From contig NC_057719.1 of the NCBI RefSeq assembly GCF_004010195.1, forward strand, positions 28,994,556-29,054,555: DNA of 60,000 nt, given 5' to 3'. Position numbers and translations under genes: made by a program. A model generated the notes under the pieces. The model was not told the DNA's origin. It saw only the letters and a list, made by a program, of their open reading frames with translations, and did not search any database. The first letter of the stretch is position 1, and the number at the start of each line of letters is the position of its first letter. Below are positions 26,733 through 44,610 of the stretch, piece by piece. The stretch is from Chiloscyllium plagiosum (Eukaryota).

Positions 26733-26901
26733 CGAGAGTGTGATGCTGGAAAAGCACAGCAGGTCAGGCAGCACCCGAGGAGTAGGAGAATCGATGTTTT
26801 GGGCATAAGGCATTCATCAGGCACTCCTGATGAAGGGCTTATGCCCAAAATGTCGATTCTCCTGCTCCTTGGATGCTGCCTGACCTGCTGTACTTTTCCA
26901 G
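26733..26901. mobile_element. Fold-back hammerhead mini-element (left part; completed by 31835-31884)
   Basis: Inverted pLTR arm 26733-26821, spacer CACT, then direct arm CCTGATGAAGGGCTTATGCCCAAAATGTCGATTC...TTTTCCAG. It resumes after the ERV as CACCACACTCTTGACTCTGATCTCCAGC. Confidence 0.85.
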
Positions 26902-27270
26902 TGTCGTGGAAATTAAATCGAATGCTAGCAAGAGCAAAGAAAAAGCTTTATTGTAACCTCTACAGGGGCTAGATACCGCATGTAAGGGGCTGAACAATTT
27001 TCACATATTCTTTTTATACATTTCGCTTTTCCTTAACATACGCTCAAGGACAAGAACTGGGAACATTTGGCTGTTGATATGATTGCTTATGTTTTCCCTG
27101 ACTCTTGCTGAATTTGACTGTTTTGCAGGACTTACAAGACCAAGCTGTCTGCTTGCAGAATCCAGCAAAGTCAGGTTGTCTACTTGAAATTTTAGCAAAG
27201 TGTTAGATTTAGCAAAGTATTCTCTTTCAGATATCACAGTAAATGTTAATTTTGTTAACTTTCCATTACA
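26902..27270 (-). repeat. ERV 3' LTR
   Basis: Minus strand TGTAATGG...CACGACA; TATAAA 27013-27018; AATAAA 26947-26952. Confidence 0.93.
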
Positions 27271-27284
27271 TCTCCCCCCTTTTT
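27271..27284 (-). promoter_or_regulatory. Polypurine tract
   Basis: AAAAAGGGGGGAGA abutting the 3' LTR. Confidence 0.9.
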
Positions 27285-27360
27285 GGCATTTTATGACAAC
27301 AATGACAAACAAACAAAAAAATACAGAACCAGATTTTAAAAAATATATAGAGCCAGATAG

Positions 27361-28347
27361 CTATACATCGACAATCTTAACAGCTGTCTGTGTTGTAAGG
27401 AGCACTTGAAATGGTCCCAGCCACCTCTTCGCCTTCCAGCTTTTCCCCCTGAAGTCTTTCACCACTATCCAGTCTCCAGGTTCCAGATCATGCCGCTTCC
27501 CTTCTGCTGGTTGGGATAGTGCAGCTTTCGCTTGATTCTGTACTTGAGATAAAAGTGTAGAGAGTTCCATACAGAAACACAACATCACATCCTCACCGAG
27601 GCCTGTTATCTGTCTTACCTTGGGTCTTGGGCCAATTCCTGTGTTGGGCAGCCTACCAAACAAAATCTTAAACCGGCTAAGATTAGCTCTTCCTCTCCTC
27701 CTAGATCTCATAAACATTAGCACAATCGGAAGTGCCTTTGTCCATGTCACCCCTAGTTCCTCACAACATTTTGTCAATTTATTTTTTAGGGTAGCATTTT
27801 CTCTTACCACTGCCCCACTGCTCGCAGTGGTAGGCACAGTGTTGTCTCATGTTTATTCCCAAATAATCACTGATCTGCTATCGGGCATTATTGACAAATG
27901 GTGTCCCATTGTCACTACTAAGCCTTTCAGGGATGCACCATCTCGGGATTATCTCAGTTAGCAAAGCCTTGGCTACTGCACTGGCATCCCGTTTAGACGT
28001 GGGGAATGCTTCCACCCATTTGGAAAACATATCAACTATTACTAGACAATACCTTTTCCCTTTGCTGGGTGTTAGTTCAATCAAATCCATCTGTAAATGT
28101 TCAAAGGTTTTTTGGGGTTGGGGGTGTGCTGCCTGACTCATCTGTATTCCCCTCCCCACATTATTAGTGGCACAAATAACACATCGTTTGCAATACTTTT
28201 GGGAGTAATGAGTCAATCTCTTAGAGTACCAGAGTACCGAAATACTGTCATACATCCCCCTAGCACATCGTTTGCAATATTTCTGGGAGCAATGAGTAAA
28301 TCTCTTAGTGTACCAGTGCACCAAAATACTGTCATACATCCCCCTAA
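27361..28347 (-). pseudogene. pol: ERV integrase (HH of the zinc finger deleted, frameshifted)
   Basis: YCKRCVICATNN, HLQMDLIEL, LVIVDMFSKWVEAFPT, SSDNGTPF, SSGAVVRENATLK, WLGPFQVLLTT. Confidence 0.92.
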
Positions 28348-28349
28348 CA

Positions 28350-40989: not shown

Positions 40990-41122
40990 AGTTCTGAGGA
41001 AAGGTCACCAGACCCAAAACATTAACTCTGATTTCTATTCATAGTTGGTGCCAGGCCAGCTGAGCTTGTCCAGCAATTTCTGTTTTTGTTTTTGATTCAC
41101 AGTATCCAGTTCTTTTGTTTTT
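40990..41122 (+). mobile_element. PLE family-C pLTR with degenerate hammerhead
   Basis: AGTT-CTGAGGA-A-AGGTC-ACCA-GACCC-AAAA-CATT-AACT. Confidence 0.6.
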
Positions 41123-42719
41123 TAATGGATTTTAATATTTTGTTGGTCTAACACTTCTGCTGTCATCTCTAACTATCCCATATACCCATCACTCCCAAAT
41201 CCATGCTTGGCCTTCTTACCACCACTCCTTTCCCAGGCCGCTGTAGCTGCTCCTTATTCTTCTCGATCCAACTTCCTCTTGGCACTACCTGTCCCACCAA
41301 ACGCTGAGCACTAATATCTTTAAAAAAGAATGAGTTAAAGACTTGAATTTGTACAACACTATTCATGACCTCCGGCATCTCAAAGCACTTTACCCAAAGC
41401 ACTTTTGAAGTGTTGTAATGTAATATTATGTAATAACTCTCCACTGCTTATCACTACACAGAAATATCCTACTTTTAACATTTGTTGATGGCACACCTTT
41501 ACTTACTGTTCTTTTCCCATCCCCCAGGATCTCCTGTCATCCATTTACACATTTAATTACTTTCCTTTCAATAGCCTGTCTCCTTGAGCTGTCTGTTACA
41601 ATAGGTGTGCTATACATACCTTTGCAGGTTTGGTGCATCAGTCACTTCATTATAATAACTTAAGTGACTTACTTTTAAAATAGTTGGCACACACCTATAT
41701 TTACTTGTATGATATAACTGGAAATGTTACAGTATCATCTCTTTGTGCTTTGGGGCAGATATCTGGTCTTTTGCATGTGTGTTTCTTACCAAGATACCAC
41801 TCAAAAAGATTAGGTTTAATACAAAAGGCTAATTGACTCCACCACACAAATTGAAAATGTGCAATTAGTTGCAATTAATTTCACTTATTGATTAATTTCA
41901 TTTATCTTAGTATAATAATATAACAATGATCAACATATTCTTGCTATAGCACTCATTTTCTTTGACTAAAAGCATGTTCTTAAATGACCCAGTTTTGAAA
42001 GCTTTTTCTTGAAGCTTGATTCCAGTGTCAGTTTTTTGTCAAACTTCATTCCAAGCTAAATCCACCTGCCTAACCTGGCAATGACCCCTGCTGAGTTCAA
42101 ATAAATAGGATTGTCACAGAACAATTAAAGGAAATGATCATTGGAATGTTAAACTGTCTTTCATTGTCTTGAGGATGATGGCCTAGTCAAAAATATTCTC
42201 ATAACCTGCCAATCCTTTTGTTGTCTGAACTTAACTCTTTGAGAGCTACATTTAATTCAGCAATAGGAAGGTCTTCCATACCATCATAGGCTGATCTTTC
42301 CAAACCTATACTGGATTCCAGTTAAGCAATGCTCAGTTATGATATTCTCATCCTTGTTTTCCAGACCATCATGGCCTCATCCATCCTGATCTCTATTATC
42401 TCCTCAGTGTCCTAGCCCAATAATGTAATGCAAGCTTCGATTCTAGTTTCTTCAGCAACCCCAAATTTAATCTCCCTATCACTGCGTCACCTTCAGCTAT
42501 TGAGGTTGCAAGCTTTGCAGTTCTGTCCTTTAACCTCTCCATCTCCTTTTTTTCCTCCAGTGTGCTCCACAAAACCTAGCCCTTTGACCAATTTGATGAC
42601 CAATCTGATCCTAAAACCTTCTTCTGTAGCTTAGTATCAGATTTTGTTGAATAGTGTTTCAGTAAGGTGCTATTACAGATACATTCATCATCATTGTTGT
42701 AAGTCTGCTAGAAAATATA

Positions 42720-42883
42720 AACAGATTGGTGGAGAAACGCAGCAGGTCTGGCAGCTTCTGTGGACAGAAAGCAGAGTTTCAGGTCCAATGACCCTTTCAC
42801 AGAACCGCAGACCTGCTGAGTTCTCCTGAAAATTCTACTATTGTTTCAGATTTCTGACATCCAGAGTTCTTTGGTTTAGTTTA
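42720..42883. mobile_element. Fold-back PLE family-C mini-element
   Basis: Inverted arms GCAGCAGGTCTG / CAGACCTGCTG; TSD TGCT(A/C)GAAAATATA (42706-42719, 42884-42897). Confidence 0.65.
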
Positions 42884-44399
42884 TGCTCGAAAATATAGGT
42901 GTTTACATGAATGGTCTCTTAACTGAGTGCTGTTAATTCTTTTATAAGTAAGGGGACAGTTCCAGAATAAAACCATTAAACCTATTGACGTGAGTCATTC
43001 CTTGCCTTATTTTAGGACAACATACATGTTAGTAACTTGAAAGTTTGGGTGACAAGTGCTTTGTCTTTCAACACTGGTTATTGAAATAAAATAAAATTGA
43101 AGTACTGAAACTGATGACTTTAAAATAGAAGTTCCAAAGAAGACAGCATTATACCATTTTTATTTTACCACTTTTGGAATTGATGTAAAAGCACTTCTGG
43201 TGCGTATTGGTGCAAAGGTGGCTGCGTAACTCTGAAGTCAGCCTGAACTGAACTCTCAAATGCATTAAAGCTAATTATTTTAAGTGAGCAGTGTGGCTTT
43301 GTGCCTGAGAGCATGGATTGGGAAACTCTCTGGCACCACTTCAGGTTAGTTCTTTTGGAGTTCCTGGGTACTTCTTAAAATTAGTATTGAATATTTTAAT
43401 GATTTGAGGAAATAAGTGCAGACAATCATTTTCTCCTTGTTTTAAAAAAGGTGCTGGGGGAAACAGACCTCTACGTATAAATGCCACTGAATGTATTCAG
43501 TGTGCTTGTCTTTTAGACAGACTGCATGTTGCGACATGCAGTGTAATCTGCTTCTTGCTAGCTGTGCTTCTCACATTACTGTTACTGGTGTTAAAACAGT
43601 AATGTAACACAATTGTAATCTTTGAAGCTGCTACAGTAAGCTGTTCTTTCCACAACATGAATTACTACACATGACAGATTGCCCATTTTCACACATTGGT
43701 AGAGTTTTCACATGTATTTACCTGCATCAATGCTTGGATAAATAGTACTGGTTTGGGAATCAATTCACAGCTGTTCGTACAGGGAAGGCTGATCTAAAGG
43801 TAAAAGGAATGTCCATTACCATAGCAACTGCTGTTTTCTCAAAGGAGGGCATTCCATACAAAGACATAATCCCTTTCTATTTTTATTCAGTTTAACACCT
43901 TGGGCTATATTTTTCACTATTCATTAATGTTAGAAATACACGGGGGCAAAAACTGGTGCACAATCAGTAAAAAGCACTGAGTGACTTTCATTCCGTGTCA
44001 GTAATTCTGTTCTCCAAATTGGTTAACAAGCAAAAAATTGATTTGTGCTTGGTATAAGCCTTTATAAAATTCAACCATAATTACATAGTTAAGAGGGATA
44101 ATCAAAAGGTAAGTAATTAACCTGAAATGAAATTTGAAGTGAGCAAGTTTAAGAGAAGAGGAAGTTTTCAAAGTATCACCATGGACAAGACAAAAATGAT
44201 AGAAGATTTTAGTATTTGAATGCAGCAGTCATTCCCCAATATGTTGCAGCAGCAGTAGAGTTGTAAGAGGGTAGTCCAAGAACACAGAGTGCAGAGAAGA
44301 GAAACACCTACAAGAACCAGCCCAGCAGAAGGTTTTTGCTGATATATTGCTAATAAATATGATGAGAAGCAGTGCGTGGTTGAACTAACTATAATCAAA

Positions 44400-44610
44400 T
44401 CATAAAGTTCTGGAGAAACTCAATAGGTCAGGCAGCCTCTGTGAACAGAGAAACAGAGTTAATGTTTCAAATCCAATGTGACTTTTCTTCAGAGGAAAGA
44501 AATGTTTACTCTTTCTCTCTTCACAGATACTATCAGGTTTGCTGAGCTTCTCCAGCACTTTCTCTTTTTGTTTTTATTTCAGATTTCCAGTATCTCTAGT
44601 GCTTTGCTTT
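44400..44610. mobile_element. Fold-back PLE family-C mini-element
   Basis: CTGGAGAAACTCA ... TGAGCTTCTCCAG arms; minus-strand CTGAAGA...GAAACATTAACTC. Confidence 0.6.

Follow-up and report, generated by a model that had tools for sequence, protein, structure and literature searches.

A stretch of 60,000 nucleotides from Chiloscyllium plagiosum (assembly GCF_004010195.1, contig NC_057719.1, positions 28,994,556 to 29,054,555; hereafter the window) contains five short insertions in which end repeats of Penelope-like elements (PLEs), termed pLTRs, face each other head to head. Are these fold-backs a ribozyme-processed, retrozyme-like or MITE-like (miniature inverted-repeat transposable element) class, as the initial annotation suggested first, or by-products of PLE insertion, its second option? 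The second option fits the data. Most likely the five are the shortest form of a described PLE insertion pattern, each made on the spot, and not a ribozyme-driven family; as a new ribozyme-driven class of element, the finding does not hold.

We named the elements E1 to E5 in window order and numbered arm positions with +1 at C3 of the hammerhead core. The five hairpin-shaped inserts are real, and all of them were present where inverted pLTR insertions lacking open reading frames (ORFs) had been annotated. No ORF of at least 100 aa was found within E1–E5 except chance frames and those of a long terminal repeat (LTR) element inserted in E1. E1 comprises a tail-less family A arm on the minus strand (26733–26821, head +0, G12 lost by CpG decay), a 4-nt loop with the first part of a plus-strand family A arm (26822–26901, G12 also lost), and the continuation of that arm with a tail to +122 (31835–31884); its target-site duplication (TSD) is 16 bp and exact (26717–26732 and 31885–31900). 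E2 pairs a minus-strand family C arm without tail or hammerhead (34066–34102, +58 to about +97) with a tailed plus-strand family C arm (34099–34230, head +1, hammerhead decayed) that overlaps it by 4 nt, within a 13-bp TSD with one mismatch (34053–34065 and 34231–34243). E3 has three family A arms, all with the core change A6 to U: one without tail on the minus strand (40217–40310, head −1), a plus-strand middle arm running from +3 to +78 (40313–40387, a 78-nt tandem unit that lacks C3 and U4), and a plus-strand arm with tail (40388–40516, head +0). Its exact 12-bp TSD lies at 40205–40216, at the end of a LINE-like repeat, and at 40517–40528.

The last two elements belong to family C. E4 joins a tail-less minus-strand arm (42720–42805, head near −2, cleavage-site region deleted) to a tailed plus-strand arm that starts at +59 and has no hammerhead (42808–42883), within a 14-bp TSD with one mismatch (42706–42719 and 42884–42897). 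E5 consists of a tail-less minus-strand arm that is the only one with an intact core motif (44400–44493, head +0) and a tailed plus-strand arm with stem II deleted (44488–44610, head near −1), without a TSD. The TSDs of E1–E4 were borne out when 600 randomly drawn boundary pairs, scanned with equal slack (±10), served to gauge chance duplication (empirical p 0.002–0.005 each); the boundaries used were those of the initial annotation, but they match the points where pLTR homology stops. All five elements fold into hairpins, with z scores of −16.9 (left part of E1), −4.3 (E2), −11.0 (E3), −2.8 (E4) and −3.5 (E5), which makes the expectation that their transcripts would do so right but trivial. 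The window holds about 15 pLTR loci, five of which are of the fold-back form.

Because the two arms within an element differ by 11–20%, and because the E4 junction is spanned by single contigs in three organisms (42749–43320, 42747–44467 and 42749–44463), an assembly artefact is excluded. The E4-spanning contigs of the two relatives carried 38 and 46 differing letters in about 1,720, and E4 together with parts of E5 was present in both related organisms. Since E4 is common to all three organisms, it predates their split, and an empty site was not obtained; E3 did not appear among the pieces listed in this comparison.

The parentage of the arms was established through ORF-bearing copies in the same window. 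Family A arms are 80–90% identical to the pLTRs of the copies at 13038–15108, 36873–37121 and 52786–55838. The first (plus strand) is 5′-truncated, encodes reverse transcriptase (RT), a cysteine-rich linker and GIY-YIG, ends 3′ without a tail, and has a 13-bp TSD with one mismatch (13025–13037 and 15109–15121, p 0.005). The third (minus strand) is a partial tandem, in which an upstream pLTR is followed by the tail and 5′ body, and its 3′ pLTR has no tail. The ORF-bearing copies match shark proteins with RVT_1 and GIY-YIG domains, and for the decayed retroelement protein the nearest named relatives come from Chiloscyllium punctatum and Rhincodon typus (68–72% over 135 aa). Pfam scans run directly on five decayed PLE frames gave no match, so the assignment to the PLE class rests on these homologs. 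The cysteine-rich linker ahead of the endonuclease is a mark of the Neptune and Nematis clades (Craig 2021, PMC8557442). Families A and C had been described as unrelated, which proved wrong: the E2 right arm scored 75 against family A (best of 500 shuffles, 40), and two further C arms scored 54 versus 43 and 44 versus 44, a significant result in two of the three C arms tried. By this similarity the two families are related. No C arm was seen joined to a body, a possible case being that at 20203–21447.

Several other PLE pieces lie in the window. At 20203–21447 (minus strand), a tail-less family C arm is followed by upstream sequence with a decayed GIY-YIG fragment at 21148–21447, possibly one interrupted family C element. 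At 12192–12430 (minus strand), a tailed family A arm is fused at +5 to about 100 bp of GIY-YIG coding sequence with about 250 nt skipped, reflecting either a template jump or a deleted template. We rejected 12192–15109 as a single inverted-pLTR element, as 13038–15108 has its own TSD and 12192–12430 is a separate piece. A 402-base assembly gap (36471–36872) lies just upstream of the PLE 3′ end at 36873–37121, beside inverted LINE-like repeats. A solo end repeat with a hammerhead-like core at 2430–2545 (minus strand) represents a third PLE-like family, to which a short match at 9507–9545 and a GIY-YIG-like body fragment at 8831–9151 may also belong.

We then compared the ends of the arms. In all five elements a tailed arm is paired with a tail-less arm, the tail being about 30–40 nt long; were arms to pick their ends independently, this pairing in five of five would have a probability of 0.03. 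Tail-less arms end 3′ at about +90 to +95 in family A and +93 to +99 in family C, and tailed arms at about +122 in A and +130 to +136 in C, the E3 tail diverging past +110. The short site is also the 3′ end of the ORF-bearing copies at 15109 and 52786, and in the partial tandem at 55 kb the tail sits after the upstream pLTR and runs into the 5′ body. At the other end, nine of the 11 arm heads fall at −6 to +5 and two at +58/+59, and none lies within a few bases of the +28/+29 cleavage site. For this clustering a binomial test gives p 4e-8, a value that assumes a self-chosen uniform null and independent arms and is indicative only. Most solo arms in the window begin at the hammerhead front too.

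The junctions between arms differed from one another in all five elements: a 4-nt loop in E1, a 4-nt overlap in E2, a 2-nt filler in E3, a 2-nt filler or short degenerate overlap in E4, and a 6-nt overlap in E5. A junction and internal structure held in common, as expected of an amplified family, were not seen among the five elements of the window. The elements also depart from DNA-transposon MITEs, which have terminal inverted repeats and a short TSD of fixed length, in that their ends are unequal, with a tail on one side, and their TSDs vary from 12 to 16 bp. The initial annotation had proposed breakpoints as a test, shared ones implying an amplified element and unique ones speaking against a distinct family. 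The junctions all came out unique, but the test is not decisive, for solo arms and ORF-bearing copies share the same ends. Because these copies use the same end points, the shared breakpoints stem from start and stop sites of the enzyme, and fixed sites of this kind explain them without a master element.

How could such inserts be made? We consider it fairly probable that the elements arose one by one from an autonomous PLE through two-strand priming, taking the model below as a whole. Each element would be one insertion by an autonomous GIY-YIG PLE of the Neptune or Nematis type that copied its end repeat only. A dimeric protein would nick both target strands 12–16 bp apart, a step seen here only as TSDs. 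From each nick a complementary DNA (cDNA) would then be primed within the upstream pLTR, at the tail end in one case and at the short site in the other. The ends themselves are observed; the priming is extrapolated from in vitro work on another PLE, whose protein, a predicted dimer, cuts and extends both target strands and starts reverse transcription at two internal sites bounding the tail, on RNA spanning the pLTR–ORF junction (Frangieh 2024, PMC11167929). Both cDNAs halt after 90–130 nt at the hammerhead front, presumably at the 5′ end of the RNA; transcription of Drosophila Penelope starts inside its pLTR (Schostak 2008). The two cDNAs would finally be linked at their heads by a small number of shared or filler bases. 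The extra arm of E3 could arise if synthesis jumped back to +78 on reaching the 5′ end of the RNA, and the +58/+59 heads of E2 and E4 and the lost stem II of E5 may be junction variants or later deletions. Such products would be dead on arrival, and ribozyme cleavage would not be needed.

Two further observations favor this model. The tail-less ends match the primed 3′ ends at 15109 and 52786, and the 13-bp TSD of the copy ending at 15109 is of the same size class as those of the fold-backs. In addition, E1 and E3 side with different ORF-bearing subfamilies at two diagnostic sites: both E1 arms and the 15-kb ORF copy carry A at +15 and C at +33, and all E3 arms and the 52–55-kb copy carry T at both positions.

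A number of points weigh against one-by-one origin by two-strand priming. For E5 the best TSD candidate is 7 bp with one mismatch (p 0.36), which amounts to none, in line with the initial annotation. No empty site with a single TSD copy was seen, E4 being shared by all three organisms. The change A6 to U occurs in all three E3 arms and in none of the nine other family A arms, and needs either one mutant template or a separate master, which fit equally well. In a tree of 12 family A arms no branch was supported, and one common origin for all five mini arms of this family was not rejected (approximately unbiased test, p 0.144), although these arms grouped together in 0% of 200 bootstrap trees. 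The start of PLE RNA at the hammerhead front is a point that we infer from the arm heads. Some junctions, as described below, recur in tens of near-identical copies, and the sample comprises five elements only.

A competitor within autonomous, one-by-one insertion is self-priming, an idea already put forward for PLEs (Arkhipova 2013, PMC3846280), in which the initial cDNA, extended from the tail as far as the 5′ end of the RNA, folds back and serves as its own template for the mirror arm. The tight palindromic centers of E1 (4-nt loop) and E5 and the 4-nt overlap of E2 suit it, and in E1, E2 and E5 the head of the tailed arm is longer or equal, as a snap-back needs. In E4, however, it is the tail-less arm that has the long head, with the tailed arm starting at +59, so a later deletion would have to be added; moreover, self-priming gives no reason for the second arm to end where ORF-bearing copies are primed. 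On balance we regard it as unlikely.

Whether some fold-backs have instead been amplified was addressed by comparison with contigs from three DNA runs, in which contig depth is no copy number and, as contigs handle palindromes badly, fold-back depth is a floor. Depth over the E3 junction (40311) was 12,223, 8,575 and 5,033, and depth on an E3 arm (40433) was 2.7, 2.3 and 3.9 million, with unique contigs at about 19, 11 and 28 in the same runs. The junction thus reaches 0.13–0.45% of arm depth. Taken together, the depths point to arm copies numbering, in order of magnitude, 100,000 and to fold-backs of E3-like spacing in the hundreds. Among the matches listed (15 of 4,546 joints; 12 of 620 rows of junction letters), two contigs whose E3-like junction is shorter by 2 nt had a summed depth of 583 in run X2 and 628 in run X15 against 19 and 11 for unique contigs, so some junctions recur in tens of near-identical copies; either repeated creation from fixed ends or modest amplification could produce this. 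Two-arm versions of the E3 junction (40310 to 40393) were present in at least 5, at least 7 and at least 2 contigs across the three runs. A pattern scan for further copies returned 0 and 2 loci in viral contigs, 0 and 5 in metagenome contigs and 35 in genome contigs. We discarded these as chance: five match over the pattern only, 36 of the 37 others have no match to the window, and one has a weak match elsewhere.

These data bear on a further alternative, that some fold-backs are non-autonomous masters, hairpin "PLE-MITEs" whose transcription starts at the pLTR promoter and which are re-inserted as one unit in trans to give small amplified subfamilies. The deep junction contigs, the two-arm versions found in all three runs among the matches listed, and the private change common to the E3 arms are in its favor; pLTRs suffice for mobilization in trans (Arkhipova 2013, PMC3846280), and non-autonomous PLEs such as MRC1 are known (Craig 2021, PMC8557442). 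Yet no two of the five junctions are alike, E1 and E3 group with different ORF-bearing subfamilies, the E3 junction depth is just the small fraction of arm depth given above (a floor), and fixed start and stop sites can remake an identical junction independently. We therefore consider this origin improbable too. A mixed account is somewhat less probable still: the fold-back stubs would be paired run-off ("strong-stop"-like) cDNAs of a dimeric PLE protein, and a subset of the E3 type would be self-propagating hairpin elements without a working ribozyme. No self-propagating hairpin class of non-autonomous PLEs was found in the literature searched.

The possibility raised first, that these are non-LTR retrozymes whose RNAs are cut by the hammerhead, circularized and reverse transcribed, is very improbable. 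Retrozymes do derive from pLTRs, and the 78-nt head-to-tail unit of E3 falls in the 51–972 nt range reported for retrozyme families. The description "hammerhead-bearing" holds for nine of the 11 arms as far as the region goes, two lacking it altogether; eight are damaged in the core, GAAA or stem II, and the E5 left arm keeps its core but not helix I. A full minimal core was found in none of the five family A mini arms versus three of four ORF-linked pLTRs, although this loss is largely later CpG decay and says little on the state at insertion. No Rfam hammerhead family matched at E ≤ 1, as expected for minimal forms. Minimal hammerheads require a same-strand partner (Cervera and De la Pena 2014, PMC4209133); a retrozyme, to count as active, must by definition carry two complete motifs in a row (Li 2026, bioRxiv 10.64898/2026.07.22.740005). 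A head-to-head pair offers one sense hammerhead per strand, and none of the five elements has two intact ones on the same strand. E3, the sole element with two direct arms, has both cores defective (one without C3 and U4, the other without A6), and joining them in tandem leaves helix I unrestored. In E1 the ribozyme core is buried within the hairpin and would cost 23.6 kcal/mol to free, whereas the third arm of E3 incurs no cost. As no element has two intact same-strand hammerheads and no arm begins at the cut site, E1–E5 are not retrozymes; with five differing junctions as well, the ribozyme-processed class first proposed does not fit. Hammerhead mutants insert normally (Frangieh 2024, PMC11167929), and the ribozyme is not what shapes the fold-backs. 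A poly(A) single-cell RNA run (X21), of a kind that cannot show small or circular RNA, gave 5,287 reads, 14 of them at ≥99% likeness; unique DNA between the repeats had zero depth, neither starts nor ends were stacked, and the run speaks neither for nor against any of this. A look-up of the stretch among RNA data sets listed none that contains it.

An origin without insertion, through recombination or deletion that later joined neighboring PLE copies in inverted orientation, or through assembly fold-back artefacts, might be entertained given the density of pLTR arms (about 15 loci per 60 kb) and the missing TSD of E5, but is highly unlikely with four TSDs directly adjoining arm ends, arms 11–20% apart, unlike chimeric reads, and an E4 junction found in contigs from three organisms.

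The window is vertebrate DNA rich in repeats, and other features of it were recorded alongside. The element that splits E1 is an ERV-like LTR retroelement of 4.9 kb on the minus strand (26902–31830), inserted later and flanked by its own 4-bp duplication (26898–26901 and 31831–31834). Its LTRs are identical in 328 of 360 aligned columns (91%), and it matches a protease, an integrase core and an MLV-type integrase C-terminal domain, all in broken frames; no RT match was found among the frames scanned. It also contains internal tandem duplications of 84 bp and 23 bp. At 23353–23620 two family A arms lie tail to tail: a solo 5′-truncated tailed arm with its own 10-bp TSD (23360–23437), and a second arm on the minus strand whose head adjoins a perfect 16-bp inverted repeat. 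Weak Rfam matches to the plant microRNAs MIR5512 and MIR815 at 23401–23495, below the gathering score, correspond to this pair. A near-exact local duplication of about 180 bp (33195–33570 and 34968–35148) flanks E2 on either side, and 36 bases at 43321–43356, absent from the X2 spanning contig and present in two relatives, are an indel polymorphism. Elsewhere we noted a tRNA-like sequence at 21738–21809 (Rfam 29.8 bits, gathering 29), immediately followed by a SINE-like repeat at 21818, and a two-copy tandem of 203 bp with 97% identity at 17101–17512.

Body-less fold-backs are the simplest product that displays both ends and the junction within 300 bp. The genome seems to hold very many of them, so counting the young ones could tell two-strand priming from self-priming and show where the RNA begins. 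If the proposed model is true, the very many natural copies in sharks preserve the position of the RNA start, the two sites at which RT starts, and the distance between the nicks. Fold-backs are also a large source of hairpins that are perfect at birth, as double-stranded RNA and unstable DNA, and they will be mislabelled as MITEs or microRNA precursors.

Among known systems, the closest are complex insertions of endonuclease-bearing (EN+) PLEs, which typically have an adjacent inverted pLTR, a tail on one end and an 8–10 bp TSD (Arkhipova 2013, PMC3846280; Craig 2021, PMC8557442). The fold-backs share with them the head-to-head pLTRs (5/5), the tail on one arm (5/5), the TSD around the unit (4/5), the palindromic junction, and parents that have RT together with GIY-YIG at the C terminus, here through the family A copies. 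They differ in lacking a body and in TSDs of 12–16 bp, compared with 8–10 bp in the rotifer examples. According to Craig 2021 (PMC8557442), it is unresolved how the inverted pLTRs of PLEs, and tails on one side only, come about. In Schistosoma mansoni, dual minimal hammerheads on opposite strands, 100–700 bp apart, were interpreted by the authors as PLEs that had been truncated (Cervera and De la Pena 2014, PMC4209133). These too are minimal type I hammerheads in pLTRs, with a bulged base before stem II and a palindromic 15.2–16.2; in E1–E5, unlike those pairs, the cores lie within about 60 nt or one is missing. TSDs, tails and junctions are not given for them in the results and discussion of that paper.

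Poseidon PAc of Anolis resembles the present case in vitro, in that two internal RT starts bound the tail, hammerhead cleavage is not needed, and both target strands are cut and extended; it belongs to another PLE clade, and joined fold-backs and TSDs are not described in the main text (Frangieh 2024, PMC11167929). Non-LTR retrozymes are likewise short, non-coding and pLTR-derived, with a type I hammerhead and a TSD of >4 bp (Cervera 2020, PMC7229834; Li 2026, bioRxiv 10.64898/2026.07.22.740005). Their units are arrayed head to tail, and two consecutive ones each contain a complete hammerhead, whereas E1–E5 are head to head and lack this arrangement.

In the literature searched, which did not cover Repbase, Dfam, subscription journals or preprint supplements, we found neither body-less TSD-flanked PLE fold-backs in sharks nor a report of such a fold-back frequency (5 of about 15 pLTR loci) or of head pile-up at the hammerhead front. 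A further parallel is twin priming of L1, in which each of two target nicks primes a cDNA, the two products meeting head to head at microhomology within a single TSD. There the inverted and direct parts hardly overlap in sequence, whereas both arms of the fold-backs copy the same 40–90 nt, which would need two templates or strand displacement. The architecture of the fold-backs is already known; absent from the literature searched were its TSD-flanked form without a body, how often that form occurs here, and the clustering of heads.

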